The notes beneath the pieces were generated by a model, which was not told the DNA's origin, did not search any database, and saw only the letters and a list, made by a program, of their open reading frames with translations. Below, one piece after another: positions 1 through 24,146 of a stretch of 24,146 nucleotides of DNA (position 1 is the first letter of the stretch; the number at the start of each line of letters is the position of its first letter). Made by a program: the position numbers and the translations under genes. The DNA is from a virus (Duplodnaviria > Caudoviricetes): positions 1-24,146 of the IMG/VR virus record IMGVR_UViG_3300042402_002590. One strand, given 5' to 3'.

Positions 1-379
1 AAATCCCTTCTCCATGATTTCCAAGAACATCAACCCAATTTACTTTATAGCCAACATATTTGCGACCCTGTGAAGTTACAAATCCAAAAGGATAATCAGT
101 TCCATAAATAGAACCGCCACTCATTGTCCCTACTAAAGTTGAGTTTTTCCATAATTTATAAACTGCTCCACTTGCGGAAGATGAACAAGCCTCAATAAAC
201 GATGTGAAATCATTTTGAAAATTATCATTTGGCTCATCAACGTTTGCAAGAACCTTTATTTTAAATTGTGAGCAACAATCCCAAAGTTCTTTATTTGGCA
301 ATAATAAACTTGGAAGCCCTCCTCCTTGATTAGCGTTAAGGGTTTGAAATGTTTTTGTAGCTGTTTCTCCGTCAAACAT
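1..379 (-). CDS. Putative tail/structural protein, runs off the left window edge
   Basis: My translation: ATG at 379, MFDGETATKTFQTLNANQGGGLPSLLLPNKELWDCCSQF..., open to position 1. Starts 11 nt after the stop of the 808-aa gene. Confidence 0.75.
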   Translation of the reverse strand, partial: MFDGETATKTFQTLNANQGGGLPSLLLPNKELWDCCSQFKIKVLANVDEPNDNFQNDFTSFIEACSSSASGAVYKLWKNSTLVGTMSGGSIYGTDYPFGFVTSQGRKYVGYKVNWVDVLGNHGEGI

Positions 380-390
380 ATTTTTTCAGT

Positions 391-2817
391 TTATTCGATT
401 ATTTTATTTTGACCGTCCTCAGTTAATTTATCTTGACTATCCTCTGTTATTTTGCTGCCTTCGGGAGCCTCATCTTTCTCATAAATTCTTGCAACGATTG
501 TATAATTAATGTTCCCTGTAGGAAGCAAAGTATTATCTATAACAGCCTCGGCCTTTATCGTTGTTGGGTTTACCTGTGTCAAAACAATCTTTTCATCAAG
601 CCCCGAAATAGGTGTAAATAAAGTCAAAGGTGTTGGTGTTTCCCATTGACTTGAATATCTATTCCTGCCTCCAATACCTCCCTGCTCATAAACCTCAATT
701 CCAAAAACAACTACAGCGTCAGCAATATCAAAAGGAGTGGTCCGTTCAAATGTAGCCCTTATTAATGTAGGTGCAAATGCTTGAATGTAATCTATTCCAC
801 CTGCAGAAAGAGGTGTTCCCGAAAGTGTAAAAGACTCTACTTGTTTTGTTGTGAAAATAGGGTTTGAGGCATAGTCATTTATATGAAGCAAAAGGTCGTC
901 GTCTTGCTGCCATTGTTGACCGTCAACGATTCCGCTTACTCCACTTCTTAAATATATCTCCCAATCTGATGTGATATAATGTAGCCAATCTTGATTGCTT
1001 CCATTGTTTGGTTGAGAAGGATTAAAGAAGTCGGTGTTTACTCCTATCAATTGAACCCAATATTCCCACCTTATCATAAATGGATAGTTGACATAAAATT
1101 CAGTTCCTCCACCTATAAAAACAGTTTCTATAGTAATATTTTTGCGTATTTCACCTGCAGGAATTTGAAATATTCGTGGAGTTGAGAAATTCATCACAGG
1201 CTGACCTGCAATGTAAATCATATTTACAGGTAAATTCCAACTTTCTAACAAGAATTCGGCTCCGTCTGATATTCTTTTTGCGACTATTTGCTGTCTAAAT
1301 TCAGTGATGTCAATTATGTCGGGATTTGGGATTGGTGAAAAACTTCCTATTATCCTTGACCTCATAACACACTCATCGTTCTTGAAAGTGGTCGGCAAAA
1401 TAGTACCTGAACCTGTCTCATCTTCCCAATGTCTGAAAAGATAAATATAGTTATTGTAATCTGCAGGATTTGGTGTTGTATCAAACTCATAAGGCTGAGT
1501 TATAATTGCCTGTTTATTTTGAATTGCAGCACTACTTGTTAAGTCAGCAATCGTAACCCAAAAAAGGAACCTCGGTGTTTGGCTTTCTTTAAATACTAAA
1601 TAGGCATCGTTTCCAATTAAAACCTCCATTTGAACGTGAAGCTTATAGTCATTAACTATGTCAACTTTCCACCTGTATATCGTTCCTGATGCTGTCCCTG
1701 AATCAACAGGATACTTCCAAATACTATCAGACTGTCCTGCTTCATTTTTAAAAACAAAGTTCGTTTCAAAATCCCTGCCATTTGTTTGATATTCCGCCTC
1801 TAAATTAGGAATCTTGCATAGGCCAAGCAGAAGTCTTGTAACGTCCGTAAACGTAACGTTTGTGGCCTCTATATCAAATTCTACTAACTGAATACCACTT
1901 AAGGCAGTTAATATTAATGATGTTTTAGCAACCCCTCCGTATGAAAAAGCTACGTTTGTTATAAATATATTCTGTGTTCCTCCATTAAATACCTCGTTGA
2001 ACCACCCACTATTCCCCAACTCTAAAGGACAATCCGTACTTTGATTTGAGTTTGGGTTTTGAAATTGAGCTGCTGCTCTTATTTGATAGACATGCCTTAA
2101 ACATTTATTGTTAATGTAATAACTCGGTGCAATAATGTTTTGCAAATCTGTTATTTGAGGTGCTAAAAAAATCGGGAGAACATTTGTTTCATGAATTATC
2201 TTGAAGCTTTGCCTTCCTGTAGTTAAATCCGTAGCGACTCTTTGAATTGTGGCCGAGCCTATTTGATATGGAGGTAGTCCATTGAATACCATATTAACAG
2301 GTGTCGTGCCCGACGCAGGAATATTCAATGAGGTTAAACTTTGAAATTGACCGTCAACCTTTGACAAGAAATTTATCGGCTCATTGTTTTCAATAAATCC
2401 ATAAGGCATTGACACTCCTGTAATAATTGACAGATTGTTTATGATCATGTCAAAATCAGAGTAGTTATTTGGAAGTGGATTACCTGTGGTCAAACAATTA
2501 CTTAAAAGAATATTGTTATTTGTAAACTTATTTATAACAGTAAACTTATTGTTTGTCGCAAAATATCCTGTTCCTACTATGTTTATAGTGTCACCAACAT
2601 TTAATGGAGAAAACCTACCTGAATTATTGAATAATTGATTTTGAAAAACAGGTGTTTGAGTAGTTAAAGGGCTGTTCGCTGTAAAAGAAATTTGAGTAAA
2701 GCACTCAAAATCAATCTCAATTGTTAAAGGCTCGCCTATGGCAAACAAGGACCAATGAACGCTTGTTGAAGGCTTTAACCTGTCTTTTATTTTCCTTGAA
2801 ATTATCGTTACAGCCAT
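391..2817 (-). CDS. Large putative tail-tip/structural protein (808 aa)
   Basis: Long ORF rich in N/T/I/F, beta-strand-like composition, downstream of the tape measure. C-terminal tandem TED motif (ITEDSQDKLTEDGQ). Function inferred from position only. Confidence 0.6.
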   Translation of the reverse strand: MAVTIISRKIKDRLKPSTSVHWSLFAIGEPLTIEIDFECFTQISFTANSPLTTQTPVFQNQLFNNSGRFSPLNVGDTINIVGTGYFATNNKFTVINKFTNNNILLSNCLTTGNPLPNNYSDFDMIINNLSIITGVSMPYGFIENNEPINFLSKVDGQFQSLTSLNIPASGTTPVNMVFNGLPPYQIGSATIQRVATDLTTGRQSFKIIHETNVLPIFLAPQITDLQNIIAPSYYINNKCLRHVYQIRAAAQFQNPNSNQSTDCPLELGNSGWFNEVFNGGTQNIFITNVAFSYGGVAKTSLILTALSGIQLVEFDIEATNVTFTDVTRLLLGLCKIPNLEAEYQTNGRDFETNFVFKNEAGQSDSIWKYPVDSGTASGTIYRWKVDIVNDYKLHVQMEVLIGNDAYLVFKESQTPRFLFWVTIADLTSSAAIQNKQAIITQPYEFDTTPNPADYNNYIYLFRHWEDETGSGTILPTTFKNDECVMRSRIIGSFSPIPNPDIIDITEFRQQIVAKRISDGAEFLLESWNLPVNMIYIAGQPVMNFSTPRIFQIPAGEIRKNITIETVFIGGGTEFYVNYPFMIRWEYWVQLIGVNTDFFNPSQPNNGSNQDWLHYITSDWEIYLRSGVSGIVDGQQWQQDDDLLLHINDYASNPIFTTKQVESFTLSGTPLSAGGIDYIQAFAPTLIRATFERTTPFDIADAVVVFGIEVYEQGGIGGRNRYSSQWETPTPLTLFTPISGLDEKIVLTQVNPTTIKAEAVIDNTLLPTGNINYTIVARIYEKDEAPEGSKITEDSQDKLTEDGQNKIIE

Positions 2818-4829: not shown

Positions 4830-7381
4830 TATATCCTGTTTTTATGAATAGTTATATCTTTTATTCCCTTTTTTACTGTGGTTTTTATGATGTCACCCAA
4901 ATTACTTAACTCTACATTTTGGACAGGTTTATTATTTATGGCCTCTGCAATCATGTCTAACTTTTGTAATACTCTAAAGTCCATAACACTTTTAGGTGAC
5001 TGCTCCACCTTATTTGAAACACTTCCATAGTTCAAGAGAATCCCTTTATTGTAGGCTTCAAGAACATTTGCTGCTTCATCGTTTGAGATATTCCCAATCT
5101 TTTGATTTTGTGAAGGATTAAAAATACGTTCTTTCCCGTCAACTGCAATCACATAACCGTCGGTGCCGGAGTGAACCTTGCTCCCTTGAAGGTCACGACC
5201 TACGTTTTCAGTTCCTTCAATGAAATTCCCTGAAATAACTGCTGCCAAAGTAGTGTCTATGATTGCTTTTTGGAGGGCTGTAGTAGGCTCTGTTTTGGCA
5301 TAACTTGAAAATAGGTTATAGAATGCAATTATCTTTTGCTCCCTAACCTCCTTTTGTTTTTGCCTCTCACTTTCAAGTGCCAACTTTGCCTGTTTCTGTC
5401 TTTCAAAAGCGAGGGTGTTTTCTAAACCCCTTTCAGCGAGTCTTTGCTGCAAAGATATAGCCTCCTCATTTAACTTTTGTTCTGCAGCCAAAGCATCAGC
5501 CCTTAACTTATACCTTTCCTTTAAAGCCTTATCAAGGTTTGCGACCACCTTATCTGTTTCAGCAATGTCCTTTTGAATTTGCTTTTGAAATTCAGCGTCC
5601 TTTTTTAAGGCCTCTCTTTTTTGCTTTAGAAACTCCTCAAAAGATTCAATTTCACTTGCATAAAACTCCTCCATTAATGCTTTTTGAGTAGTGTTAAATT
5701 CAACTGCTCCTGCGATTTGAGCTGCTTCAAATGATGAAGTTCTTTTTTCATTCATCTTATCAATTAAAGATTGAACCTCTCGCATTTCACTATTTATTGT
5801 TTCCGACCTTGTTTTTGCGACAGTCATGTTATCCTCATCAATTAACCTTTGTAGTTCCTTGCTCCTTTCCCTTCGAGCGTTAACCCAATCTTCAAGTTTT
5901 TTATCCCTTTCCTCCCTTTGCTTTTTTTCCTCCGCTGCTAACTCTTTTGCCCTATTTGCAGCAGCCTCTTTTTCGGCTTTGGCCGCCTCGGCTGCTGCTA
6001 TTTCTTTTTCAAGAACCTGAGTTTTTATAAGTGCTGATGATTCATTCTTAAAGTTTTTCTGCAATTCAAGCAAGTCCCTGTTAAATTTCCTTTTGTTTAA
6101 CATTTCTTTGTAGTCACCCCTGTAGCCCTCCTCCATTCTTCCATTCCTTAACTCTGAAAGGTTTAAATCTAATTCTTTAGCTAACTTTAAAACTGCATCG
6201 GAATAATCTTTTGATATTTTCTTCCTTTCGTTGCTATTTTGCAGTTCTTTTAATTTAATATCGGCCTGTTCTTTTGTGATTTTGCCTTGCGCCTCTGATA
6301 ATTTTATTAAATATTCAGCCTGTTTATTGCCTAAATCTTGAATGTTTGTAGTGGTTCTTTCAATGTTTTCATTCAATGTTTCAGTGATGTCTGAAAACGA
6401 AGTGAATGACTTTATAACGTCATAAGTAACATAACCTATACCTGCTATCGCTGCTGCAATTAAAGTCAAAGGATTCAACAATAAAGCCTTCCCTACGTTA
6501 AACAATGCAACCCCTAAGGCCTTTAACCCCGAGACTATTTCAGTTAAGGATATAGCTTTAATTACTGAACCAAATTGCTTTGCTTTGTCGGCTGCTCCTG
6601 CAAAGTCTAAATCCTTTATATCACCACCTACTTGACCAAAAAGATTTCCTGCAGTTGATAATTTGCTGTCATTTGCGAACGCTTTTGTTGCATCTTTTGC
6701 ATCATTTATTTTGTCTTTTAAAGCACCTGCCTCGGCTGCAAGTTTGTTAAATTGCTCACTACCTACCTCCAACCCTTGAAGTTCCTTCTGAATAGCTTTT
6801 AGCTGTTGTGGATAGTTCCCGACATTTCTTTGGAATTCACCAACTGACTGCTCTGCTCCCCTAATCTTTTTATCAAGTGCTTGAAATTCCTCACCTAAAG
6901 ATTTGTAAAGTTTACCATTGGTCCTTCCTGTAAACTCTAATTCCTTTAGCTGTTTTTTTATTTCATTTAAGTGCTTTGTGCCTTTAACGTATTCACCGTT
7001 TAAACTGTTTAAAGCCTTCTCCGCTGCTCTATTTTGCCTGTTAGTTAACTCGGTGTTCTTGATCACTTCACGTTGAGTTCTAACCTTTTCCTGCAGTAAC
7101 TTTTCAGATTGCTTTAATACTTCTATTTCGCTTTTTTCAATTAATGCTTTTTGTTTAATTAAAGCTGACGACTCTGCGATTGCTTGATTAAGTTTCTTTA
7201 CATCATCATAAGACTTCACTTTAAAAGTGCTTACAAATTGCTTCTGAACCTCCATAGAACCTTTCAATTCGTTCTTGGTATCCCTAACTATCTGCAGAAA
7301 CTTTTCGCTGCTTGAAATCGCATCTTTAAATGCATCTTTTTCAAATAGGTCACTTGCTGATAACGCTTTTCCTGTACTCAT
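4829..7381 (-). CDS. Tail tape measure protein (850 aa)
   Basis: Long coiled-coil K/E/A/Q-rich protein with a QRNVGNY motif, a central hydrophobic LLLNPLTLIAAAIAGIGY segment and a C-terminal FIEGTE...DGKERIFN region. Located after the major tail gene. Confidence 0.85.
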   Translation of the reverse strand: MSTGKALSASDLFEKDAFKDAISSSEKFLQIVRDTKNELKGSMEVQKQFVSTFKVKSYDDVKKLNQAIAESSALIKQKALIEKSEIEVLKQSEKLLQEKVRTQREVIKNTELTNRQNRAAEKALNSLNGEYVKGTKHLNEIKKQLKELEFTGRTNGKLYKSLGEEFQALDKKIRGAEQSVGEFQRNVGNYPQQLKAIQKELQGLEVGSEQFNKLAAEAGALKDKINDAKDATKAFANDSKLSTAGNLFGQVGGDIKDLDFAGAADKAKQFGSVIKAISLTEIVSGLKALGVALFNVGKALLLNPLTLIAAAIAGIGYVTYDVIKSFTSFSDITETLNENIERTTTNIQDLGNKQAEYLIKLSEAQGKITKEQADIKLKELQNSNERKKISKDYSDAVLKLAKELDLNLSELRNGRMEEGYRGDYKEMLNKRKFNRDLLELQKNFKNESSALIKTQVLEKEIAAAEAAKAEKEAAANRAKELAAEEKKQREERDKKLEDWVNARRERSKELQRLIDEDNMTVAKTRSETINSEMREVQSLIDKMNEKRTSSFEAAQIAGAVEFNTTQKALMEEFYASEIESFEEFLKQKREALKKDAEFQKQIQKDIAETDKVVANLDKALKERYKLRADALAAEQKLNEEAISLQQRLAERGLENTLAFERQKQAKLALESERQKQKEVREQKIIAFYNLFSSYAKTEPTTALQKAIIDTTLAAVISGNFIEGTENVGRDLQGSKVHSGTDGYVIAVDGKERIFNPSQNQKIGNISNDEAANVLEAYNKGILLNYGSVSNKVEQSPKSVMDFRVLQKLDMIAEAINNKPVQNVELSNLGDIIKTTVKKGIKDITIHKNRI

Positions 7382-10779: not shown

Positions 10780-12309
10780 CTATGCTTTTTTGATAGCTGC
10801 AATATCAGTCGCAAAAGTACCTTTAACGAACGCTGTTCTATCGTTATTTTTGGTTACTAAAGCACCTCTCCACTCAGCAATAATAGTTCTCAAATTCTTG
10901 GTGAAGTCGTTTCCGTCCAAACCAATTGAGATTCTAACTCCTTGTCTCGTGTATAATGTAGCCATATCAAATGCTCCTACTAAATACGTCCCTACAGTTA
11001 CAAGTGTAGTTGGTATCATAGGCACTCCGTCCAATAATAATTGACCTGCAACCAATGACAATCTTTCGATATATCTTTTGTCGGTGCTTGATACCTTTTT
11101 GGTTTTCAAGGCTGCAATCGTTGTTGGATTTAATAAAATAGCTGTCGGCATTTCTTGCTCTGCAAGTGCAATTTGATTCATTGCCACCACTAAAACGTCA
11201 ACTTCGTTTGGATTATCAACCTCGTTCGCTTGACCTGTCGCGAAAGTTCCTGCAGCAAATGCTGTCGCAACTGTTCTAATTCCATTCAAAGCAGGAGCCG
11301 TTCCATTACCACTATACGCTGTAAGTTCAACGTCCTTCATTAATTCTCTTAACAACTCGTTGTTAATTTCAGCGTTAATGAAGTCAATATCATCTAACAT
11401 TTCAGTTGAAACTTTGATGAATGCTGTACGCTTAACAACTGCTTGTGATGCCACAACTAAATCATAATCAATTTGATTTTTAGTGATACCTTCCGCTGTT
11501 CCACCTGCAGACCCGTCTTTGTTCGCTTGATAAACCCATGAAATGATGTTTGAAGACGCTGTCCCACTTGCGAATAAATCCATTAAACGTACTCTGCGAG
11601 TCGCAATAACATTTAAGCCTGTGATTCTTTGCTCTACAGGAACGTTACCACCTGAAACATTGCCTGTGATAGTCATGTTACCAACTTCTTTTGTGGCAAA
11701 AGAAAACTCATTTCCTTTAATGTCATGAAGTTCACCGTTCTTTAATGCTTTTAACTTTTCAATGTTATCCTCCAAACCTTTGCGAACGCTGTCTTTAAAA
11801 GTAAGACCACCTACATTCTTTTCGCTTTCAGATAACTTTTTGATCATAAGACCGTGTTGCTTTAGAGTTTCATTTAAAGATTTCATTTGGTCAATTCTAT
11901 CCTGTGCCAAATTCTCCTGCATTTCTTTTATCGTTGCAAGATTCTTTTCATTGCTCTCATCAATTAGTCTTTTGATTTCTAACTTTGAAGCTTCGTTTTT
12001 GGCATTGTAATACTCGGCCAACTGTTCAGGAGAAGCGTCTTTTAAAAAGACATTTAACTCCTCGCCTTTTAACTCTTTAAATTTACCCTCTGTCATAAAC
12101 ACAGGAAGTAAAACTGCAAAGCTAATTGCCTCGGCTGTAATTACTCCACCATTTTTGAAGGTCGATGCATCAATACTTGACACGCTGAACGCGATAAGTC
12201 CAAACACCATAGCCATTAAGAAAACTTGAATGTTTCTTTTTCTTTGTGCAAACTTTATTTTCATTGAGTTCGCATTGTCTTTTTTGTAATTTAATTCTTT
12301 GTAGTACAT
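10780..12309 (-). CDS. Major capsid protein, HK97 fold, with N-terminal scaffold (delta) region (509 aa)
   Basis: Motifs AEGITKNQ, FIKVSTEMLDD, GNGTAPALNGI, LLDGVPMI, GNDFTKNLRTIIAEWR. A coiled-coil region precedes the mature domain. Follows the protease gene. Confidence 0.95.
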   Translation of the reverse strand: MYYKELNYKKDNANSMKIKFAQRKRNIQVFLMAMVFGLIAFSVSSIDASTFKNGGVITAEAISFAVLLPVFMTEGKFKELKGEELNVFLKDASPEQLAEYYNAKNEASKLEIKRLIDESNEKNLATIKEMQENLAQDRIDQMKSLNETLKQHGLMIKKLSESEKNVGGLTFKDSVRKGLEDNIEKLKALKNGELHDIKGNEFSFATKEVGNMTITGNVSGGNVPVEQRITGLNVIATRRVRLMDLFASGTASSNIISWVYQANKDGSAGGTAEGITKNQIDYDLVVASQAVVKRTAFIKVSTEMLDDIDFINAEINNELLRELMKDVELTAYSGNGTAPALNGIRTVATAFAAGTFATGQANEVDNPNEVDVLVVAMNQIALAEQEMPTAILLNPTTIAALKTKKVSSTDKRYIERLSLVAGQLLLDGVPMIPTTLVTVGTYLVGAFDMATLYTRQGVRISIGLDGNDFTKNLRTIIAEWRGALVTKNNDRTAFVKGTFATDIAAIKKA

Positions 12310-13240: not shown

Positions 13241-14512
13241 TTAATTTACTGCAGGAATATTTTTTTGTTCCTCGGGAGTATTTGCAATCGGCACCCCACC
13301 AATCATTAAAATATCAGCGTTATCCTCAGGCAAAGTTTCATAGTCTAACTCCCTTCTTACTTCGTTGGCTGTTAATATTCCGTTTTGTTTTACCATAGTA
13401 AATATTTGAGCCTTCCTTAACTTGTCCTCCTGTAAAGCTTCAACACCTGAAAAATCTTGACGCAATCTATATTCACCTACAGGATAATGATTCTTGATAA
13501 TGAATGAAAGTCCATCACAAACCTTTTTGCTTAATGGAATGATGCAATTTGTGTACATTGCCTTCTCCGCTTCTAACCTATTATTGTACGTCTTATTTTC
13601 GGGATCATTGAATAATGATGAATCAAGACCATAAACATTACAGAGTGCACGAGTGTTAACAACTCCTTTTTCAATTAACTGCAAATCTGAAGGACTCATA
13701 GCCATTTGGATAAACCCGAGGTCCTTGTTGGTGACTTTTATTTTACCGAAATTATGAGTGCCACCTGTTTCGTTGTTCCAAGTATTTTGTGCTTCCTTTG
13801 CTTGTTCAGGAGTCATTGGTATATTGGACTTGTCGGTTATCATACCTATAGCACCTCTATTTTGAAGGAGTGCTGCATCGGCTTCCCACCTATCGTTTCC
13901 TGTTTTAACTACCATTGCAGCAACTTGAATCGGGCTTAAACCATAAAGGTCTTCATTAAAAGAATTGAAACAAGGGTTATGGAATTTAATGTGAGATACC
14001 TCCTCCATTGTAAACTCTCTGTGAGTCCTTCCATAAGTAAACAGGTACTTATATTTAGGAATAAAGAAGTCTTGGTTTGATTCAATTGTCACCGAGTCAG
14101 AAGGCAAAATGTCAATGTCTTGGTAAATATCCCCCTGTATAGTAGTGCCACATTTAATGTAAGCGTTCCCTGTGGTTAATAGGTATAGTAATATCAACTC
14201 ATGAACATCACCCCAATTATAGCCCTTAATAGGATTTGGGTTTGCCATTAAATCAAAGAGGGTGCTATTTTGGACTTCCTTCCACGTTCCATTGTTAAAC
14301 CTTCGTTCAACTATCCATTCTTGTGCTTTGCTTACGTCAACTATCTTTCTAATTATTGAATAAACATCTACATTTGAACCATAACTTTGACTTATTAAAG
14401 AGCCATTATTCATAGCTAATGAGTTCGCTGCAAAACTTCCAAACATTTTATAAATATTTTCTCGTTGTTGCTCCGTAGTTCCGAGTGACCTAATCCAATT
14501 TATAAATCCCAT
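13241..14512 (-). CDS. Portal protein, HK97 family (423 aa)
   Basis: LMANPN, LLTTGNAYI, EEVSHIKF, YGLSPI, LCNVYGL, TYNNRLEA and GILTANEVRREL motifs. Follows the terminase. Confidence 0.95.
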   Translation of the reverse strand: MGFINWIRSLGTTEQQRENIYKMFGSFAANSLAMNNGSLISQSYGSNVDVYSIIRKIVDVSKAQEWIVERRFNNGTWKEVQNSTLFDLMANPNPIKGYNWGDVHELILLYLLTTGNAYIKCGTTIQGDIYQDIDILPSDSVTIESNQDFFIPKYKYLFTYGRTHREFTMEEVSHIKFHNPCFNSFNEDLYGLSPIQVAAMVVKTGNDRWEADAALLQNRGAIGMITDKSNIPMTPEQAKEAQNTWNNETGGTHNFGKIKVTNKDLGFIQMAMSPSDLQLIEKGVVNTRALCNVYGLDSSLFNDPENKTYNNRLEAEKAMYTNCIIPLSKKVCDGLSFIIKNHYPVGEYRLRQDFSGVEALQEDKLRKAQIFTMVKQNGILTANEVRRELDYETLPEDNADILMIGGVPIANTPEEQKNIPAVN

Positions 14513-14548: not shown

Positions 14549-15700
14549 TTAACCAAAATAAAAAGCGACTGCAGGAATTAATTCATCAAAGGCATACCTC
14601 AAAGGGTCAATTAAATGATTCATTGCATCAATAGGTGTTTCAGACTTCTTATCATGCCAAGTATAAGCCCTCAATTCCTCCTTTAAGTTCAGGCTGTTAG
14701 GTGTTACGATTATCTGATAGTCCTGCATTCTCTTGATAGTATTCCTCACAGAATCGGCTCCTTTTGCTGCGGGTTTGATATTGAAACCTGCGATTGAAAT
14801 GTTTGTGATGCCTCGGGCATCAGCACAATCGGCCACAATTAAAGTATTTTTATTTTTGATCAATGAATTCATTTCTTGAATCAACCTTTCTGATGAGTTC
14901 CCTGACCTATACATTACCTCATCTGCATAAATAATCTTTTTCTTTTTATCAATTGCTACCTTTATTAAAGTGTCAGGGTCTTTAAAACCAAAGTCTTGAC
15001 CATAGATATAAGGCAAACTATCATCAAATTCACCCTCCTGCCAATTTTGAAATATCGCGCCCTGCAAAGTTCCTATTTCACCGAGGCCATAAACCCTCCA
15101 CCAATTTGCCCAATATTCAGAGTGCTTTCCCTTTTCCTTTTTTTCTAAAAGTTCTTCAAGTTTATTCGGTGATAGTGCTTCATTGTCAAGATAGGTAAGC
15201 AAAAGAAATTCGGCTGCCTTCATAGGTAAAACCTCATCATGAACCCAAAATGCTCTTGAAGGATTGAAGTCAATATAAACCTCATCAGACCTTCCCATAA
15301 GTTGATTCGCTATTTCCCACTTGATGTAGTTTGCTTCATTCAGAAAGAGTATATCTCGCTTTCCTGCAGCGTGAGCCTTCCCTGCCTCATCGAACGCTTT
15401 AAATTGAATCTTACTACCACTTGCAAAGGTATATTGGAGAGGGCTGTTTATAAAACTATTCTCATTCCACCTGTTCGTGTCCTTCATTATTTCCTTGAAA
15501 ATGTCTAAAGCACCGTCTTTTACTGCTCCTAAAGTTTCAGCGACAATCGTAATCTTTAAACCTTTCTCACGAATTGCACGATCTATAAGTATCGGAATTA
15601 TTGAATACGTCTTTGAGGCATAAGTCCCACCTTGAACCACCCGAATAGGTGACTTCATTGCATGAATTTTCTTTAATGCTGTGGTTATTTGAAAAGCCAT
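14549..15700 (-). CDS. terL: Terminase large subunit, PBSX-like (383 aa)
   Basis: Walker A variant QGGTYASKT, Walker B ILFLNEA, DFNP, TYLDN, WRVYGLGE, nuclease motifs GQDFGFKDP and DAMNHLIDPLRY. Confidence 0.95.
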   Translation of the reverse strand: MAFQITTALKKIHAMKSPIRVVQGGTYASKTYSIIPILIDRAIREKGLKITIVAETLGAVKDGALDIFKEIMKDTNRWNENSFINSPLQYTFASGSKIQFKAFDEAGKAHAAGKRDILFLNEANYIKWEIANQLMGRSDEVYIDFNPSRAFWVHDEVLPMKAAEFLLLTYLDNEALSPNKLEELLEKKEKGKHSEYWANWWRVYGLGEIGTLQGAIFQNWQEGEFDDSLPYIYGQDFGFKDPDTLIKVAIDKKKKIIYADEVMYRSGNSSERLIQEMNSLIKNKNTLIVADCADARGITNISIAGFNIKPAAKGADSVRNTIKRMQDYQIIVTPNSLNLKEELRAYTWHDKKSETPIDAMNHLIDPLRYAFDELIPAVAFYFG

Positions 15701-15703: not shown

Positions 15704-16204
15704 TTAATCAAGTTTGAAAAGAGGCTGCTCATTGGTAACCTTCATTTCGCCCTTTGCAGGAGCATAGTCTCCCTCTATTTTACTTATTTCAGTCTGCAGT
15801 CCTATGATAACAGTTCGTAATCTTGAACGCTCAGACACGCTTAATTCACGCGATACTTTTTGCACCCTGCCATTTACGACCACTGTGTCAAATGTTTTAT
15901 TGTTTGATAGTTCATAAATGCAATTGTCAACCTCTGCTTTGTAATTCAAAAGACGTTCTGTTTTGCTACCTATTTTTGTCTTGATTATTGTCAACTGTTC
16001 CTCGGTATGTTCGCTGTCCTTTGCTTTTTTAAGAACATCTAAATACTCTGAATAGTGCTCATTGGCGACCTTCCACGCTCTATCAAACGTTCTTTCGCTT
16101 GTTTGCCATTTCTTGCCAAAAGCAGACATCACATTTTGTCGTGATACGTTTCCTGTCTTTAAATGGTCAGTTATAAAATCAATGTATGCATTCCTGTTAT
16201 TCAT
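15704..16204 (-). CDS. Putative terminase small subunit (166 aa)
   Basis: Directly upstream of terL. N-terminal HTH-like segment (WQTSERTFDRAWKVA), helical middle, C-terminal ISKIEGDYAPAK. Confidence 0.7.
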   Translation of the reverse strand: MNNRNAYIDFITDHLKTGNVSRQNVMSAFGKKWQTSERTFDRAWKVANEHYSEYLDVLKKAKDSEHTEEQLTIIKTKIGSKTERLLNYKAEVDNCIYELSNNKTFDTVVVNGRVQKVSRELSVSERSRLRTVIIGLQTEISKIEGDYAPAKGEMKVTNEQPLFKLD

Positions 16205-16809
16205 ATTGATTTCTTTTTTGAGAATTTAGTATTATCAAGTAGTGCAAAGTTTATTATAGGCTTTCGAGCCCAATCATCATTCGTGTCAATCGGCCTTTCT
16301 TTTGGGACACTTTCAATACTTTTATAAACTATAACGTTTTTAAGATTATATCGTTCAATCAACTCATCTTGTCTGCCTCCATAACTTGCTGTCAATATTA
16401 AGTTTTTTGGAATGTCATTTATCCTGTTCACCCAATATTGAAGTGACTTTGTGTAAGCCCACATCTCAACTTCGGGATTGTCAATTGCAAGTTGAACCCA
16501 CATATCAAAGTATTTTTGATTAAAAAAGTCACCTGATGAATGAATCCTAATTGATTTGCAACCTGCAGGAATAACAGGAATACCTCCACCTTTTACGAGA
16601 TCAAAGTTTTTATGTCTATGTTCACGAACTGCAGGAAACCTCTCCGAACTTGCTGCATAACATTTATATTGACCTCTGTGAATGTCAAACTTGCCTGAAT
16701 CTCTGTCAACTGTGACTTTGCATTCAAGCGCAAAAGGACATGTACTTCCTGTCGGCAAATTCCATTCGTAAGCTATTCCACTATAATATTTTTTGTTTTT
16801 TATAAACAT
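16201..16809 (-). CDS. GP88-like protein (possible Fe-S/radical-SAM-related fold)
   Basis: NLP...TCP....C...CYA, IRIHSSGDFF, WAYTKS and NLILTAS motifs, which I recognise from phage gene product 88-like proteins. Confidence 0.7.
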   Translation of the reverse strand: MFIKNKKYYSGIAYEWNLPTGSTCPFALECKVTVDRDSGKFDIHRGQYKCYAASSERFPAVREHRHKNFDLVKGGGIPVIPAGCKSIRIHSSGDFFNQKYFDMWVQLAIDNPEVEMWAYTKSLQYWVNRINDIPKNLILTASYGGRQDELIERYNLKNVIVYKSIESVPKERPIDTNDDWARKPIINFALLDNTKFSKKKSI

Positions 16810-16818
16810 ATTATTGGC

Positions 16819-17316
16819 CTATTTTGGAGTCCATGACTTTGAAAACTCTTTATCTTTAAACACTTCTGACTTTGGGATACCTGCTCTAAAAAGCAACCTA
16901 ACCACTTCTTCCTTTTCCATCATTAATCGTGACATTATTTCTTCACCACAAACTCCCTGCTCTACCATATCAGTGACAATGTTTGACATTTCAAGAACTC
17001 CATGAGTCCCTCTCGCACGATTGTGACGTATCGTAGCCATTTGCTGTTGAGCCTTGTCTTTAGGGTGAACCATAACAGTTGGAACCTTCCCTCCGGTGAG
17101 AGCATAAATTTCTTTTGAGCCCGAAACGGTCCACCTGTGGAATCCGTCAACGATTGTATGGTCGGGATTAATCACTATTGGTTGAGTCCAACCGTCTTCA
17201 AGAATTGATATTTTTAACAACTTCATTTCTGCAGGAGCAACTTTGTTCGGGTTATAATTGTTTGGCTTTAATAATTCCCTGTCAATCCAATTTATTTCAT
17301 CTAAAGGCTGTTTCAT
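16819..17316 (-). CDS. ibrB: IbrB-like ParB/Srx-domain protein
   Basis: PNNYNPNKVAPAEMKLLKISILEDGWTQPIV, IVDGFHR, ATIRHNRARGTH: IbrB signature. Coupled (ATGA overlap) to the IbrA-like gene. Confidence 0.85.
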   Translation of the reverse strand: MKQPLDEINWIDRELLKPNNYNPNKVAPAEMKLLKISILEDGWTQPIVINPDHTIVDGFHRWTVSGSKEIYALTGGKVPTVMVHPKDKAQQQMATIRHNRARGTHGVLEMSNIVTDMVEQGVCGEEIMSRLMMEKEEVVRLLFRAGIPKSEVFKDKEFSKSWTPK

Positions 17317-18512
17317 TTTTTTAATTTTTTTAGTTTATATTTTTCACTTCCAAATACTGCGATTGATTCTTCGAATGTTTTAAACCCTAATTTTTTCTGA
17401 GCGCTAATCGCTGCAGATTCAAGAGCAGGTCCTGTCCTTCCTTTGAAATCACCTTTTATGGCTAACTTACAAAGAAAAGCCCAAGACGTTCCTGTCAAAG
17501 GGTGAACACTTTCATCAGGTATCGCATCATCTGTTTTGTCATAATGCCTCCCGATTATTGAGTTTATGTTCTTCTTTACAGCGACAATGTCAATCGTATC
17601 GTAACTTTCAAGAATTATTTCAATCCATTGTTTGTAGCTTAAATTGTCGGGCTTTGCCTTTTTACCGATTCCATAAAGTTCGGTGTTTGCGTATCTCCAA
17701 GCCGTAGCAACTCCCTTAACTCTTGCTAACATTTTGTGCCACATTTCAGGGAAACATTCTGCATAGATCCATAAGCCTCTTAAAGGTTCCTCCCCAAAAG
17801 GAGGGCAAACTCTTTGACCTAAAAACTTATTGTGCAACCTTGTTTGGTTAAATATGTCATAAGTCTTATTGTAGTCCCAACCGAATTTATGGACCGCTAA
17901 CCATACGTCCTCGCTGCTCCAATCATAAATCGGGTGAGCAATTGATGCATGTCCTTCCCTCGCGATATAATTGTCATTCTTCTTTACGCTTACAGCCTTC
18001 ATACGTCTAAAACTTTCCTGTGTCCTAACTCCTGTTAAGTTTACAGTTAAACCATCACTTCTTCTCGGCTTGGTTGAGCTGAATTCTTGAAAGGAAAGTC
18101 CTTTATGAAAAAGAGGGTCTGACGTAATTACGTTTTTAGGTAATTCACGAACCCAAAGGTCTTTCTTTTCGGAGTCCCAACAATACCAAAAAGGTTCTTC
18201 ATTTGAACAAGCGTTCCTGTGTTTAAATTCAAGACAATACCATTTAAAAGAGTCACCGAATTTCTCGCGTGTCCTTTCAGCGTATTCAATAGTTGGAGGG
18301 TGAATTGCTTCCTCATCAAAAAAGTTAATCTCAAATGTCCTACCTAATTTCTTTGCCACTATCTCCGTTAAGTTTAAGACCACTGTGCTGTCTTTACCTG
18401 CAGAAAAGTTAACTATAACATTGTCAAACGCTGTAAAAAGGTATTCTATTCTTTCGATTGCTTTTGAATAAACGTCTTGATCAAGGAAATCTTTTTTTCT
18501 AACTCGTGCCAT
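17313..18512 (-). CDS. ibrA: IbrA-like protein (PAPS reductase/PP-loop family, DUF3440-type)
   Basis: AIERIEYLF, PP-loop FSAGKDS, FFDEEA, RNACS, GVRTQESFRR, HPIYDWSSEDVW, YNKTYD, QRVCPPFG, PEMWHKMLARVKGV. Confidence 0.87.
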   Translation of the reverse strand: MARVRKKDFLDQDVYSKAIERIEYLFTAFDNVIVNFSAGKDSTVVLNLTEIVAKKLGRTFEINFFDEEAIHPPTIEYAERTREKFGDSFKWYCLEFKHRNACSNEEPFWYCWDSEKKDLWVRELPKNVITSDPLFHKGLSFQEFSSTKPRRSDGLTVNLTGVRTQESFRRMKAVSVKKNDNYIAREGHASIAHPIYDWSSEDVWLAVHKFGWDYNKTYDIFNQTRLHNKFLGQRVCPPFGEEPLRGLWIYAECFPEMWHKMLARVKGVATAWRYANTELYGIGKKAKPDNLSYKQWIEIILESYDTIDIVAVKKNINSIIGRHYDKTDDAIPDESVHPLTGTSWAFLCKLAIKGDFKGRTGPALESAAISAQKKLGFKTFEESIAVFGSEKYKLKKLKK

Positions 18513-19219
18513 TATTTTGTATTTATGTAACTGTTTGCGAATTCTTCACTTTTTGCCCTTTCAATCAAATATTCAGGAGCATAATCCCAAATCAAATCGT
18601 AGGTTTGCTTTCTTGAACGAGTCCTTTTAAACACTTCATGAGCCAAAGAAACCCAAGTGAATAAGTGCTTTGAACCATCACTATAACATGAAGGAAAAGG
18701 CAAATTGTTTTCTTTAATGTAGTCCCAAACGTCCTGCAGAGTCCAATCTAAAATCGGGTGAACCTGTATAGCCTTTAAACTTTTCTTAAAGTATATCGGA
18801 GCAGGAATAGTGTTCTCTTGCTTCCTTCGGCCAAATAGCATAAGCCCTGCATCTGTTTTTTTCGCAAACTCGGGAATTGCTTTCCAATGTCTTTCTTTGT
18901 CAAGTGTTGAAGGTCTCCAAGTTGGATTGCAAATTTCAAGGTCCCAAATTTCAGAAAACTTTACAGGGTTTAACGTATTTGAGAAAGTTACATTATATCC
19001 ATAGTGGTCGGCCAAAAACCTAACTTCATTTTCTGTTTTTTTAGGCAAAAGGCTTAACTCACAAAATCCATCAACTAACCCGATTGTCTGCTTTGCTAAA
19101 TGACAAGCTATTAAACTGTCTTTGCCACCTGAAAACAAAAAGAATTTATGTCCTGCAGGTGCTTGTGATGCAGCTGTCTCAATTATTTTTCTTGCCGAGT
19201 AAATCTTTGACTTATCCAT
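18512..19219 (-). CDS. PAPS reductase family PP-loop protein (235 aa)
   Basis: FSGGKDS, GRRKQE, HPILDWTLQDVWDYIKENNLP. Lacks the CC/CxxC and C-terminal ECG motifs of true APS/PAPS reductases. Confidence 0.85.
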   Translation of the reverse strand: MDKSKIYSARKIIETAASQAPAGHKFFLFSGGKDSLIACHLAKQTIGLVDGFCELSLLPKKTENEVRFLADHYGYNVTFSNTLNPVKFSEIWDLEICNPTWRPSTLDKERHWKAIPEFAKKTDAGLMLFGRRKQENTIPAPIYFKKSLKAIQVHPILDWTLQDVWDYIKENNLPFPSCYSDGSKHLFTWVSLAHEVFKRTRSRKQTYDLIWDYAPEYLIERAKSEEFANSYINTK

Positions 19220-20022
19220 TACTTTGTCTTTATTGAATCAATATTTGCTGCCGAAACTCCGTCAACGATTGTTCTGTTAATCATAGGGTGATTCTCATCT
19301 TCTGCTCCAAAATCACTATCAGGGTGAAACGCGATTACGTCCATAGGTTCATCACTTGTGAAAAAACAATGATTTCCTACTTCGTACTTACCTCCGTCAA
19401 CTCCTGTGGCAAAAGAAACTCCGTCCCAACCTTTTATGACAAATATCATTCCCTGCTTTAACTCTAAATTACCAAATGGAGTAACACAAAGACCATTACC
19501 CTTTGCCACCACTCCGATTCTGTGACTCGGGTGGGTGTGAGGTGTTTGTTTAATGTCTTTTGGAAAGTGCAAATGATTGAAACAAGGGTCGCCTTTCTTA
19601 ACAGGATGTATCAATATACTATCAGTGCAACCGTCAATGTACTTTAATCTGCCCTCGTTCTCTATAGGTCCACCAACTGTAAACATAGCCTTAAAGTTAT
19701 TTGATGGATAAATACCTTTTGTGTGAAGCACCTCAATTAATATTGCCTTTCCGCAAAAAACGCTTTCAATCTCAAATTCGCCCGAAACTGAAAAGTACAT
19801 TCCATTTCCGACGTAAAGTTCAGGGAAGTTTGTTCCTTTTATTTTTAAAAGTCCTTTGTAAACATAGCCATAATAAGAGCAATCTTTATCCCCTTTTGGA
19901 AAAGAGTTACCTATCACATTGTAATACTTTATAGGATATTCTTTGTTTTTTGAATCATCAAATACTATCCCTGCTCTATCATTCCCAAAAGATATGAAAG
20001 CACTATTTTCGCTTCTTGTCAT
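19219..20022 (-). CDS. Cupin-fold protein (267 aa)
   Basis: HLHFP...QTPHTHPSHRIGVVAKGNG and a downstream HCFFT motif (cupin metal ligands). The N-terminal half also looks like a beta-barrel (YGYVYKG...GMYFS). Confidence 0.75.
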   Translation of the reverse strand: MTRSENSAFISFGNDRAGIVFDDSKNKEYPIKYYNVIGNSFPKGDKDCSYYGYVYKGLLKIKGTNFPELYVGNGMYFSVSGEFEIESVFCGKAILIEVLHTKGIYPSNNFKAMFTVGGPIENEGRLKYIDGCTDSILIHPVKKGDPCFNHLHFPKDIKQTPHTHPSHRIGVVAKGNGLCVTPFGNLELKQGMIFVIKGWDGVSFATGVDGGKYEVGNHCFFTSDEPMDVIAFHPDSDFGAEDENHPMINRTIVDGVSAANIDSIKTK

Positions 20023-20023: not shown

Positions 20024-20638
20024 TTATTTTTTGTTATAAATTCTTATTAATTCCATTAACGCTTCCTCATGTTTTTCAAAAAGAAATTCATGCTTTATTT
20101 TATTCAATGTTTCCAAAAGCAAAACCTTGTTAGTGTTTATCATTATCAATTCAAATACTGAATAATTATCTGATGAGGCCGAGGGTTTGTTCTCTACAGG
20201 TGCTTTTGAATCCTCGAAATGGTCTTTCATGCTTAAGAAGTCATTGCTTCCTCCTTGATTAATGACGTATTCTTCGATTTCGTATTCTTCACAAATTGCG
20301 TTTGTGACGTCAGCGTCCATTACGATGTTTTCTTTGGCAATAATATTGTCTGACAAAGCCATTTCATAAAACTCCTTCGTGCCGGAGTGAATGTCGGTTC
20401 TTTTGACTGCGATTATTTCGGTGCCATCGGTTTCAATAATCCTCACTTTTGTGATACCTGCCTTCTCGGCTGTCTCGGTAACTCCATTACCTGCGATAAT
20501 CTCGTTGTCATTGCTTATCAAGATTGACCTTCCCAATCCATTTTTCTTGATTCCTTCTTCAAGCTTTCTCATTCCTGCAGGAGAATGAACGTTCGCATTT
20601 CTTTGATCGTGCTTCAAATCTTTTATTGAATTTTTCAT
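20024..20638 (-). CDS. ParB-like N-terminal domain protein
   Basis: IKDLKHDQRNANVH...LEEGIKKNGLGRSILISNDNEIIAGNG...ALSDN. ATG 20638 preferred because of its A-rich leader and upstream promoter box. Confidence 0.8.
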   Translation of the reverse strand: MKNSIKDLKHDQRNANVHSPAGMRKLEEGIKKNGLGRSILISNDNEIIAGNGVTETAEKAGITKVRIIETDGTEIIAVKRTDIHSGTKEFYEMALSDNIIAKENIVMDADVTNAICEEYEIEEYVINQGGSNDFLSMKDHFEDSKAPVENKPSASSDNYSVFELIMINTNKVLLLETLNKIKHEFLFEKHEEALMELIRIYNKK

Positions 20639-20652
20639 TTTTTTATTTTTGG

Positions 20653-20682
20653 CAAAAATAACCAAATATTTGAATCAACAAA
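20653..20682 (-). promoter_or_regulatory. Putative Bacteroidota -33/-7 promoter for the modification-packaging operon
   Basis: TTTG (20682-20679), an 18-nt spacer, then TATTTTTG (20660-20653), 14 nt before ATG 20638. Confidence 0.5.
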
Positions 20683-21897: not shown

Positions 21898-21988
21898 TTG
21901 GTTTGGTTTTAGTCGGTCAGCTATATTGCCTTCCGCTCTACAAAGAAGAGTATTCTACTTTGAATAAAAAAATTTTTTTTCAAAATAA

Positions 21989-22285
21989 TTAGAAATAATT
22001 TGTAAAGTGCTGCAAATCAGCCAAATATTTTTTTGGATAAATTATACCTTTTTGGTCTTGAAGGCAAAAAGCAATAAATCCGAGATTGTTTAATTCATCT
22101 ATTCTTGCCTCCTGCAAAGGTTTCAACGAGTCATTTTTTTCCTTGCACTCAATCCAAACTGACTTCCCCTGCTTCATACAAAGCAAATCGGGAAAGCCAT
22201 TGTCCGATAATCGTATAACCTTTAAGACTCTATAACCTTTTTCGGTCATGATCTTTTTTGTTTTAGTTTGGAAAGGTGATGCCAT
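21989..22285 (-). CDS. VRR-NUC domain nuclease (PD-(D/E)xK; likely Holliday junction resolvase)
   Basis: GFPDLL...WIECK...LKPLQ...LNNLGF. Adjacent to an SNF2-like helicase, a common pairing. Confidence 0.88.
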   Translation of the reverse strand: MASPFQTKTKKIMTEKGYRVLKVIRLSDNGFPDLLCMKQGKSVWIECKEKNDSLKPLQEARIDELNNLGFIAFCLQDQKGIIYPKKYLADLQHFTNYF

Positions 22286-23492
22286 ACTCTTTTATGAATA
22301 AATGTTTTGTGAAGTTTTTCTTTTTTTGTACTGTTTTGTAAATCTTTGGCTCAATACCGTCCTCTGAAAATATCCAATAAACGCTGTTTTCAAGCCTCTC
22401 CATCGTTGTTAACCTGTCGCGTGACTGCCAATAGCTAACCGCTGAAAAGTCAATGTTAAAGTAAACTAAACAATCGGCCTCCTTTAAAGATATACCTTCC
22501 CTCCCCGAAACTATTTGCAGAGCAATCCACTTATCTGACGTTTGGAACTCCTGCAGATTTTCGGTGACCTTTTCGCCCATAACCTGTTTTATGCATTCAA
22601 GCTCTGCGACAAACTTATAGAATATCGCAATCTTTTTGCCTTTAAAATAATCACGAATAAATACTCCTTTTGAGTCGTCAATAACCTGCCTCGTTCCATC
22701 ATCAAATTTTATAGTACCTGAATATAATTGATGCAATTTGCTCATTAACTTTGCACCTGTATCAGCGACTATTTCTTTTTCTTTGCCTCTTACAATAAAG
22801 TCAGATTTTAACGTATCAATTAACCTATAGGTTAACGGCTTCATCTTAACTTTTAGAATATTTTCAGCGACCATTGATTGAAATCCTGCTTCTTTTTGGG
22901 TGAACCTTATAATGTAATCGTTTATGACAGGCATAATCAATTCCTTAATGCCTCCCGAATAATCGTTGACTGTCGCGTATCCCAAATACTTTAGCTTTAT
23001 TGCTACATACCTATTCGCCCACTTATAAAAACTACCCTCGGTGAACGGAGAGTGGTTTGATACCCAAAATTGATGATACCATTGGGAATGACTTTCAGGT
23101 GTTGGAGTCCCTGACAAAAATATCATTGGGAGACGTCCGTACTTCTTTTTGAACATTGCTGCTCCTTTGCTCGGTTTTGGGAAAGCACCAAACCTGTGAT
23201 GCTCATCGTGTATCACAAGGTCATAATCACCTGTTTCTTTGTGTTGAGCCTCATCGTTTATAACTTTTAATGTATAGCTATGTCCCGATTTATTAAAGTC
23301 CTCTTGAATAGTTCCTATGGCTTTTTTCTTTGTCATGAATAAAACTGACTTGGCGCCAAACAGGTTCGCAATTTGGAGGGCTGTTAACGTCTTTCCGGTA
23401 CGAACCTCCATTGATAGATAAACTATTCTTTTTTGCTGCAGGACAAGGAGTGCACGATTTGATATTTCTATTTGATAGTCTCTTAATTGCAT
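22263..23492 (-). CDS. SF2/SNF2-like helicase (409 aa)
   Basis: LRDYQ (Q motif), RTGKT (Walker A), IHDEHH (Walker B), LSGTP (motif III), SGREGISL, QSRDRL. Confidence 0.92.
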   Translation of the reverse strand: MQLRDYQIEISNRALLVLQQKRIVYLSMEVRTGKTLTALQIANLFGAKSVLFMTKKKAIGTIQEDFNKSGHSYTLKVINDEAQHKETGDYDLVIHDEHHRFGAFPKPSKGAAMFKKKYGRLPMIFLSGTPTPESHSQWYHQFWVSNHSPFTEGSFYKWANRYVAIKLKYLGYATVNDYSGGIKELIMPVINDYIIRFTQKEAGFQSMVAENILKVKMKPLTYRLIDTLKSDFIVRGKEKEIVADTGAKLMSKLHQLYSGTIKFDDGTRQVIDDSKGVFIRDYFKGKKIAIFYKFVAELECIKQVMGEKVTENLQEFQTSDKWIALQIVSGREGISLKEADCLVYFNIDFSAVSYWQSRDRLTTMERLENSVYWIFSEDGIEPKIYKTVQKKKNFTKHLFIKEYGITFPN

Positions 23493-23503
23493 TTTGATTT
23501 GGT

Positions 23504-24146
23504 TTAAAATAAATCTTCTTCCTCTTTTGGGTCAGGAATAAATGCTCCCTTTTCGTATTTGCTTATTTCATAATACCTTCCAATCAATGGAGTATTCCCC
23601 TCTGAATAGTGATAACCATAATATTTGCAATATTCTTCAAGCCATTGTTTAAAACGCTTTTGCGATAACCACTTTTTCAAGTCAGCGTACTCCTCAATTA
23701 ATTGGTTGAATAGTTCGTTCTTGCTCATTCTCTGCTCGAAGGCAATTACATCATGATTCTTGGTCCACTCATAAAATTCGAATGACGTATTTTTTATAAA
23801 CTTTCTTGTTTCAATATTGTCAAAGTCTGCCTTAACCAATCCATTATTCAGGTAATATTGTGAACATTGAATCATGTAATTGTCAAACCTCGCCCACTCG
23901 GCCTCGTCCCACTCATCGAAAAGTAACTTACCGAATTCCATTAATGGAGTGTTTGCCTCGTTGAAATATCCACTTAATTCTACCTCAAACTTCCTGCGCT
24001 CAAAACTTCCTCCGACACCCCCTACAGTATAGTTTGTGGTTATGATTACTTTCGGTGACCTTTGCACAGGTAACTTTATTGCATCTTGACCTTTATATTC
24101 AATCGTTATACCTTCAGTGATCAATGAAAAAAGACGTTCAAAGTCA
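23504..24146 (-). CDS. Primase-associated helicase (SF3/D5-like), C-terminal part; 5' end outside the window
   Basis: The frame is open to the right edge (DFERLFSLITEGITIEYKG...). Motifs SPKVIITTNY and SFERRK, then a winged-helix-like C-terminus. The track's TTG start is an edge artefact. Confidence 0.8.
   Translation of the reverse strand, partial: DFERLFSLITEGITIEYKGQDAIKLPVQRSPKVIITTNYTVGGVGGSFERRKFEVELSGYFNEANTPLMEFGKLLFDEWDEAEWARFDNYMIQCSQYYLNNGLVKADFDNIETRKFIKNTSFEFYEWTKNHDVIAFEQRMSKNELFNQLIEEYADLKKWLSQKRFKQWLEEYCKYYGYHYSEGNTPLIGRYYEISKYEKGAFIPDPKEEEDLF

Follow-up and report, generated by a model that had tools for sequence, protein, structure and literature searches.

We examined a stretch of viral DNA of 24,146 bases (Duplodnaviria; Caudoviricetes; positions 1 to 24,146 of IMG/VR record IMGVR_UViG_3300042402_002590), referred to as the window throughout, in which the four-letter words CCAG, CTGG and CTAG do not occur. 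Its G+C content is 35.8%, in agreement with the roughly 35% that the original prediction, made by eye from the sequence alone, had given. The window belongs to a tailed phage and carries capsid, portal and terminase genes, a six-gene cassette of the GP88/ParB/3'-phosphoadenosine-5'-phosphosulfate (PAPS)-reductase type, a VRR-NUC gene, a helicase and a primase-helicase. The assembly consists of the window and nothing else. The sequencing runs containing the window sequence are lake or freshwater metagenomes, with no RNA dataset listed among them; run X1 may be its source. A contig of run X2 closes the genome at about 33 kb, and a close relative, G001 (33,171 bp, 98% complete, 90-98% identical to the window), supplies the rest of it. 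The features and sites of the window are as follows.

1..24146, no strand: whole window, without CCAG, CTGG, CTAG or CCNGG, and with Pro-Gly absent from its 7,693 encoded residues (exact counts)
2730..2735, no strand: sole GCNNGC of the window, 22.7 expected (word scan)
5166..5169, no strand: CCGG, one of five left, the others at 9851, 17093, 20382 and 23395; none lies inside CCNGG (exact counts)
6514..6518, plus strand: sole CTAAG/CTTAG of the window, 32.8 expected (word scan)
10780..12309, minus strand: major capsid protein of HK97 type, used as bait for finding relatives (PF05065, E 2e-20)
13241..14512, minus strand: portal protein (PF04860, E 4e-45)
14549..15700, minus strand: terminase large subunit, best cultured matches in Flavobacterium phages at 43% (PF04466/PF17288)
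16201..16809, minus strand: GP88-family protein, the first gene of the cassette, absent from G001 (PF17338)
16819..17316, minus strand: ParB-like protein (phrog_2159, E 3e-63), which we take to be IbrB-like
17313..18512, minus strand: PAPS-reductase and DUF3440 protein, the cassette marker (profile matches), presumably IbrA-like
18512..19219, minus strand: second protein with a PAPS-reductase domain (PF01507)
19219..20022, minus strand: cassette protein of 267 aa, with no Pfam, PHROG, PADLOC or NCBIfam match (profile searches)
19604..19608, plus strand: sole GGATG/CATCC of the window, 25.6 expected (word scan)
20024..20665, minus strand: second ParB-like protein (phrog_620, E 6e-14)
21945..21950, plus strand: sole GAAGAG/CTCTTC of the window, intergenic, 14.4 expected in coding DNA (word scan)
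21989..22285, minus strand: VRR-NUC nuclease, a common phage gene, with nothing linking it to CCAG (PF08774)
22263..24124, minus strand: superfamily 2 helicase and C-terminal part of the primase-helicase, which is 797 aa when whole in G001 (profile matches)

The best cultured matches of the phage proteins are to phages of Flavobacterium, Elizabethkingia, Polaribacter and Cellulophaga (27-43% identity), and a Bacteroidota host appears likely from such resemblances. A profile scan of 25 window and 14 G001 proteins revealed no integrase or methyltransferase family. Similarly, 21 methyltransferase, Vsr and SspD queries (tblastn) gave no methyltransferase or Vsr match in the window or in six long CCAG-free genomes, the sole match being G001's own SspD-like gene. 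The cassette differs between strains, with G001 carrying this extra SspD-like PAPS reductase (L199:11593-12435) and no GP88, and the contig of run X2 also skips the GP88 region (positions 16206-16820 of the window). The PAPS-reductase domains of the cassette match BrxP/DndC/SspD models weakly, and the cassette may modify DNA.

Exact counts on the plus strand of the whole window gave 0 CCAG, 0 CTGG, 0 CTAG and 5 CCGG, and, as control words, 145 CCTG and 63 CAGG. The total absence of the first three words and the abundance of these anagrams, both read by eye in the original prediction, thus stand. Under a second-order Markov model 88.7 occurrences of CCAG and CTGG together, 27.7 of CTAG and 19.2 of CCGG were expected. 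A codon null of 1,000 synonymous-codon shuffles over 28 open reading frames (ORFs; 23,163 nt) gave means of 31.4 for CCAG (minimum 18), 46.8 for CTGG (minimum 30), 27.6 for CTAG (minimum 15) and 19.0 for CCGG (minimum 7), matching the earlier estimate of tens of each of the first three, and for none of the four words was any shuffle as low as the real count (0/1,000 each). Both nulls therefore uphold the depletion of all four words, none of which lies near expectation. CCGG had been called near-absent; it is depleted (5 versus about 19) but not close to zero, and its observed to expected ratio (0.26) groups it with TCGA (0.29), GATC (0.35) and AGCT (0.45), apart from the three zero words. CCAG/CTGG is below 0.1 of expectation on both strands in the window (0/79) and in G001 (2/127), where the individual counts are CCAG 2, CTGG 0, CTAG 0 and CCGG 7, so that the rest of the genome is likewise emptied of CCAG/CTGG and CTAG. 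The 3-mers CCA, TGG, CAG and CTG are not avoided in the window (0.86-1.04 of expectation).

The absence of CCAG is kept by purifying selection and not by repair or mutation bias. Aligning the window with G001 gave 7,359 third positions, 830 of them different, and among these differences silent changes creating CCAG/CTGG were found 0 times versus 13.8 expected (P 1e-6); the test took sites with identical flanks only, and the G001 CCAG site at 25693 falls outside it. Seven neighbouring control words were gained as expected (observed/expected: CCTG 11/9.6, ACAG 14/13.7, GCAG 13/11.3, TCAG 24/20.6, CCAA 32/22.0, CCAC 12/11.2, CCAT 12/15.5). Silent gains were also missing for CTAG (0/3.8) and CCGG (0/2.9), and few for TCGA (4/17.1), and a comparison of the window with the relative L001 again gave no CCAG/CTGG-creating change (0/5.3 expected). 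The missing gains include T>C, A>C, A>T and T>A routes, which Vsr repair cannot block.

Five scans of viral contigs yielded 299 loci recruited by homology to this phage, some of which may have other hosts, and removal of near-copies left 138 clusters. Defining CCAG-free as under 12% of the first-order Markov expectation, we observed 10 CCAG-free clusters (11 by a second-order null). CCAG is thereby the most often eliminated non-palindromic 4-mer, followed by CAGG (4), CGTC (4) and ACAG (2); the palindromes AGCT (11) and TCGA (10) are eliminated at a similar rate, and CTAG is the most often eliminated 4-mer overall (47/138). When partitioning the CCAG-free clusters by companion loss, three have lost neither CTAG nor CCGG, one CCGG only, three CTAG only and three both. 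For instance, the observed/expected counts of CCAG, CTAG and CCGG are 0/93, 101/63 and 56/38 in G479, 1/137, 116/124 and 0/61 in G480, 10/124, 0/48 and 71/61 in G483, 0/104, 0/148 and 0/10 in G487, and 4/290, 151/221 and 0/26 in MW202828. The original prediction had joined the words into one degenerate palindrome, CYRG; because relatives lose CCAG, CTAG and CCGG independently of one another and in every combination, a single CYRG specificity is unsupported. CCAG loss shows no association with CCGG loss (Fisher P 0.74) and a weak one with CTAG loss (6/10 CCAG-free clusters versus 42/128 others, P 0.096). In a quick terminase tree over the 59 clusters with a usable terminase, 8 changes are required to account for the 9 CCAG-free rows, at least as many as under shuffled labels; CCAG loss is scattered over the tree, and the word is a target in its own right. 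By strand, 20 of the 299 loci are CCAG-free on both and 3 are weakly one-sided, a looser rule having flagged one other. Among 15 GenBank records screened for WWCCAGWW in a search of cultured phages, the sole true CCAG-free case was MW202828, an uncultured phage. Cellulophaga phage phi46:1 looked empty by this octamer; its full count (CCAG 67/88) places it outside the CCAG-free group.

Pro-Gly is coded by CCNGG and therefore always carries CCAG/CTGG or CCGG. CCNGG occurs 0 times in the window versus 9.4 expected, and Pro-Gly 0 times versus 13.7 expected, the lowest of all 400 dipeptides, a result indicating that word-avoidance pressure reaches the protein level. The sites left in emptied genomes stand at Pro-Gly in 4/4 cases in MW202828, 1/1 in G480 and 1/2 in G001. 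The other G001 site lies in the first 1.2 kb, where 8 of the genome's 31 'forbidden' sites are gathered (P 1e-5), which would fit a recently gained gene. In the CCGG-tolerant G483, G479, L171 and L164 all 13 Pro-Gly are written CCCGG/CCGGG. Pro-Gly loss need not imply CCAG pressure, because phi46:1 lacks both Pro-Gly and CCNGG with CCAG at a normal level. Additionally, Gly-Pro is scarce in the window (2 versus 13.7 expected), and phi46:1 (L324-L325) and G487 (L333-L334) have neither Pro-Gly nor Gly-Pro, with CCNGG and GGNCC both at zero. The five leftover Pro-Gly sites of MW202828 (L326-L328) and G480 (L329), few as they are, all read CCCAGG, preceded by C. The DNA flanking the small number of leftover sites in four genomes showed no halo of cytosine (C at 29/120, 55/300, 4/60 and 3/30 positions, versus a background of 17-21%). 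In another, otherwise CCAG-free locus, one repetitive gene (L062:9668-11149) holds all six CTGG, as if newly gained.

The list of purged words given at the outset was incomplete. Besides CCNGG, the window has lost CTCTTC/GAAGAG from its coding DNA (0 versus 14.4 expected), CTAATA (0 versus 17.6) and ACGCC (0 versus 17.3), it retains one copy each of GGATG, GCNNGC and CTAAG as listed above, and CTNAG is reduced to 10 versus 64.3 expected; GATATC, CTCAAG, AGTACT, TACGTA and GTGCAG are low by Markov expectation too. We take several of these words to be FokI-, Cac8I-, DdeI-, EarI-, ScrFI-, EcoRV- and ScaI-type sites, and most co-eliminated words of the window are restriction sites. GGATG is listed as an enzyme site in the supplementary tables of PMC6286503, and CTAG likewise in the supplement of PMC4752239 (here and below, papers are cited for the sections drawn on).

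Next, we investigated bacterial chromosomes, using 351 genomes from the class of G002, the likely host class (G176 and G093 are included, neither of them low). All of them (351/351) hold WWCCAGWW in hundreds to thousands of copies, and the lowest ratio of this octamer to its reversed control, read by eye, is 0.34 (G120); the corresponding counts in the phage G001 are 0 versus 30. None of the chromosomes is near zero, so a general mutational bias shared with the host is disfavoured. CCAG is partly depleted in G222 (0.37, over 280 kb), G397 (0.35), G365 (0.45) and G146 (0.26), and CTAG is low in all four. G222 (3.2 Mb; L226, L241-L252, L299-L306, L345-L367) also avoids GGCC, GATC, CTAG, TCGA, CCGG, GGATG, GTCAC, GACGC and CCATC and holds scattered restriction-modification (R-M) loci of Types I-like, II, IIG and III, presenting the picture of a restriction-rich lineage. 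CTAG stands at 0.21 in G397 (L278-L281, L286) and at 0.36 in G365 (L282-L285), with CCGG at about 1.15 in both. A Vsr-like bias may colour some chromosomes in this way; it does not yield the zero of the phage. The vsr gene, sought in candidate hosts as had been proposed, was found in 1/5 CCAG-poor chromosomes, as a broken fragment in G397, so that this check returned a mild Vsr-like pattern in G397 and G365 with little of the gene behind it.

Host restriction-type enzymes that destroy phage DNA at a single site probably explain the loss of CCAG/CTGG and CTAG. Unmodified phage DNA with even one CCAG/CTGG or CTAG would be destroyed. CTAG would be a palindromic restriction site of the common kind, and CCGG one that acts more weakly or acted in the past; CCAG/CTGG would be a target of its own, asymmetric and 4 bp long, with an enzyme acting on single sites in either orientation. 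Because no methyltransferase was detected in the phage, its escape route would be site loss through silent change. In a toy model, a cost paid per single site left both strands near zero in 16/16 runs, whereas a pair-dependent cost in nearly all runs brought one strand close to zero while the other mostly kept 18-54 sites. MnlI (site CCTC) is an asymmetric 4-bp Type II enzyme, and AciI (CCGC/GCGG) combines an asymmetric 4-bp site, single-site action and protection of both strands, as predicted here, with a different sequence. The simplest agent would be an endonuclease similar in kind to AciI and MnlI, orthodox Type II (IIA/IIS) but of a new specificity. Site elimination is reported as typical for orthodox Type II sites, absent for Type I/IIG and slight for Type III (Rusinov 2018, PMC6286503), and this pattern, together with the two-strand loss and the toy model, makes an orthodox asymmetric four-base cutter the likeliest candidate. 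Of the explanations offered in the original prediction, a host defence reading a short word is thus the one supported, although not with one degenerate CYRG word as its target. The mechanism, restriction-site avoidance, is known; what deserves attention is the asymmetric target, which is in no enzyme list searched. Since the Rusinov 2018 tables do not list CCAG/CTGG as a restriction site, the CCAG enzyme is a postulate.

Several observations weigh against this explanation. The searches made found neither a cognate CCAG enzyme nor a host, and the host phylum is suggested by protein identities of 35-46%. The capsid protein matched 4 loci only among 185,579 species genomes, the best (46%) on a metagenome-assembled genome contig of Luteibaculaceae with normal CCAG (109/115), and a search of 41 genomes around G222 with 20 kb of the window turned up neither spacer-like nor prophage matches. 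The sole candidate locus tested as the CCAG enzyme, a C5 methyltransferase with proteins of 410 aa and 154 aa in G222 (L299), was rejected: of the 4/351 genomes that carry it, three have normal CCAG, and the loci themselves are CCAG-rich (78/57) and CACTG-poor (1/14). Among the loci fetched from the CCAG-poor G222 there was no MnlI-kind pair of C and A methyltransferases, and those able to put N6-methyladenine (m6A) on CCAG are of Type III and IIG only. R-M genes shared by CCAG-poor chromosomes comprise a Type IIG family (G222, G397) and a D12 methyltransferase (G222, G120), none being common to all, and for three putative endonucleases no PDB relative was found. CCAG, CTGG, CYAG and CYRG are absent from the Rusinov 2018 and 2015 site supplements, where CCGC and GGATG, used as search controls, were found in the 2018 tables; full-text literature searches found no CCAG endonuclease, current REBASE being outside the scope of both. 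The marine methylome supplements PMC8919816 and PMC9516812 hold no CCAG motif. Furthermore, CCAG-free clusters lean towards CTAG loss, two chromosomes with low CCAG and normal or raised CCGG (G397, G365) look like repair bias, and if this phage is taken singly, a CYAG enzyme could be the agent. As a separate observation, the L299 locus (L299:4573-7835; helix-turn-helix, C5 methyltransferase, 410-aa and 154-aa proteins) has 1,232 homologues, and the near-lack of CACTG/CAGTG in the L299-type loci of the three other carriers hints at its recognition site.

A single host CYAG/CTRG enzyme could remove CCAG and CTAG together here, with a variant enzyme serving the relatives that lost CCAG only. Both words are at or near zero in the window, G001 and G487, both are low in G222, G397, G365 and G146, and CY(m6A)G and CC(m6A)G are motifs of closely related methyltransferases, M.Phi93II/M.Phi145II and M.Phi15I (PMC4190342). 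This proposal is unlikely, as the CCAG-free G479, G480 and MW202828 keep CTAG at the counts given above, co-loss is expected by itself because CTAG alone is eliminated in 47/138 clusters, and M.Phi15I homologues amount to weak partial matches in 1/351 chromosomes. We judge it just as improbable that a Type III (or IIG/ISP) enzyme methylating one strand acts at CCAG and that the phages overshot, clearing both strands. Adenine is confined to one strand of CCAG, as can be the case for Type III sites, G222 carries a Type III mod-res pair, and Parabacteroides phage PM93P1 (OP172823; L337-L338) shows a partial bias on the plus strand (CCAG 70/67, CTGG 11/42); however, two-strand-free loci outnumber weakly one-sided ones by 20 to 3 (n=299), the pair-dependent model leaves one strand well stocked in nearly all runs, and Type III and IIG sites are in general rarely or not avoided (PMC6286503). 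A non-classical host system reading CCAG, such as a phosphorothioate-marking bacteriophage exclusion (BREX) type 4 system with a CAG-core motif, is more improbable still. C*AG and C*CA phosphorothioate motifs are reported from gut Bacteroidota, the motifs of BREX-4 being asymmetric 4-mers (PMC12914056, PMC11931770, preprint 2024.06.03.597111), CAG is part of each of the three asymmetric losses that stand out most among relatives (CCAG, CAGG, ACAG), and a 'cCag' motif is listed without an assigned enzyme for Exiguobacterium sp. GIC31 (PMC4752239). Yet phosphorothioate motifs have been published as the 3-mers CCA and CAG, neither of which is avoided in the window, these systems modify a minority of sites (PMC12914056), no PF01507 PAPS-reductase match was found in G222 and G146, those in G397 and G365 look like CysH/CysD, and the DUF1998 domain of Druantia/DISARM is present in 0/5 CCAG-poor chromosomes. 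Druantia itself was rejected as the agent on this DUF1998 result and on the one motif found in print, CAGCTGNC (2024.04.14.589459).

The two remaining explanations put forward at the outset fare worst, and we regard both as barely credible. Vsr-type T:G repair tied to a CCGG methyltransferase would turn CTAG into CCAG/CTGG and these into CCGG, which would then be restricted. The low CCAG and CTAG of G397 and G365 with CCGG at about 1.15, the broken vsr fragment of G397 and CCGG at or above expectation in the CCAG-free phages G479 and G483 are compatible with such a drain. For the phage it fails, as gains are missing by all routes, including those closed to Vsr, and leftovers stand at Pro-Gly: MW202828 and G480 keep CCAGG/CCTGG there despite an open silent change to CCGG. 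Moreover, the window is poor in CCGG, selection acting against this word would presumably kill the products of the drain, no chromosome approaches zero CCAG, and a short vsr query, positive in one CCAG-poor chromosome, matched no CCAG-free phage. The other explanation holds that the phage's own ParB/PAPS-reductase cassette, or a nuclease, acts at CCAG/CTAG, so that the phage avoids its own target. The cassette is present in the window, G001, G479, G480 and G483, all CCAG-poor, and its PAPS-reductase/DUF3440 gene occurs in 6/11 CCAG-free clusters versus 41/127 others; this difference is not significant (P 0.18), and the association is inflated because one relative search used the cassette gene as bait. 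As 41/47 cassette-bearing clusters keep CCAG, no cassette match was found in two long CCAG-free genomes, G487 (100% complete) and MW202828, and retention of its target, not loss, would be expected of a cassette that modifies DNA, the proposal is not supported.

Several known systems offer parallels and contrasts to the window. Restriction-site avoidance in non-temperate double-stranded DNA phages (PMC6286503) resembles the window in complete, silent, two-strand loss at several sites; that survey starts from known enzymes, whereas the window's leading signal comes from an asymmetric 4-mer to which no known enzyme corresponds. In the halovirus Hardycor1 CTAG is absent and the non-palindromic CCAG is strongly avoided (Markov odds 0.11), as in the window, and its authors read this as restriction escape (PMC7911831, Table 2). 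Unlike the window, Hardycor1 is archaeal, has 68% G+C and encodes a methylase, CCAG is reduced and not absent, and its relatives were not followed (PMC7911831). Lactococcal 936 phages share the words CCAG/CYAG as DNA-modification targets in phage-host conflict, through the orphan methyltransferases M.Phi15I (CC-m6A-G) and M.Phi93II/M.Phi145II (CY-m6A-G), whose motifs were assigned by SMRT (single-molecule, real-time) sequencing and homology and for which the sections drawn on name no cognate endonuclease (PMC4190342). These phages keep and methylate CCAG (26+12 and 29+18 in 12-13 kb), whereas the window is empty. The asymmetric Type III site of EcoP15I is purged under restriction in phage T7, which keeps sites on one strand, whereas both strands of the window are empty. 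Dcm/Vsr repair in E. coli, which turns CTAG into CCAG, shares CTAG scarcity with the window as a partial depletion, but CCAG rises there and is zero here (PMC4687349). For M.Gel16401IV, a 5-methylcytosine motif was detected at 6.8%, without a cognate endonuclease in the sections drawn on (PMC4752239).

A CCAG-loss rate similar to that of AGCT and TCGA predicts that a CCAG enzyme would be common, and a new 4-bp specificity would be a useful reagent. CCAG loss could further serve as a host-linking signature for uncultured phages and yield a design rule for DNA used to transform lake Bacteroidota. It is possible, although we hold it doubtful, that aquatic Bacteroidota carry widespread, long-lived, uncatalogued defences reading single asymmetric 4-bp words built on CAG, perhaps other than classical R-M and powerful enough to clear entire phage genomes of such a word on both strands; the CAG-containing words lost among the 138 clusters are CCAG (10), CAGG (4) and ACAG (2). 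If such a family exists, phage genomes would give its specificities in negative.

Upon closer examination of these words, CAGG/CCTG is eliminated on both strands in the clusters of L034, L078, L079 and L096 (0/46, 0/41, 0/24 and 0/16, respectively), with CCAG raised in three of the four, and ACAG/CTGT is eliminated on both strands in the clusters of L022 and L026 (0/18 and 1/27).

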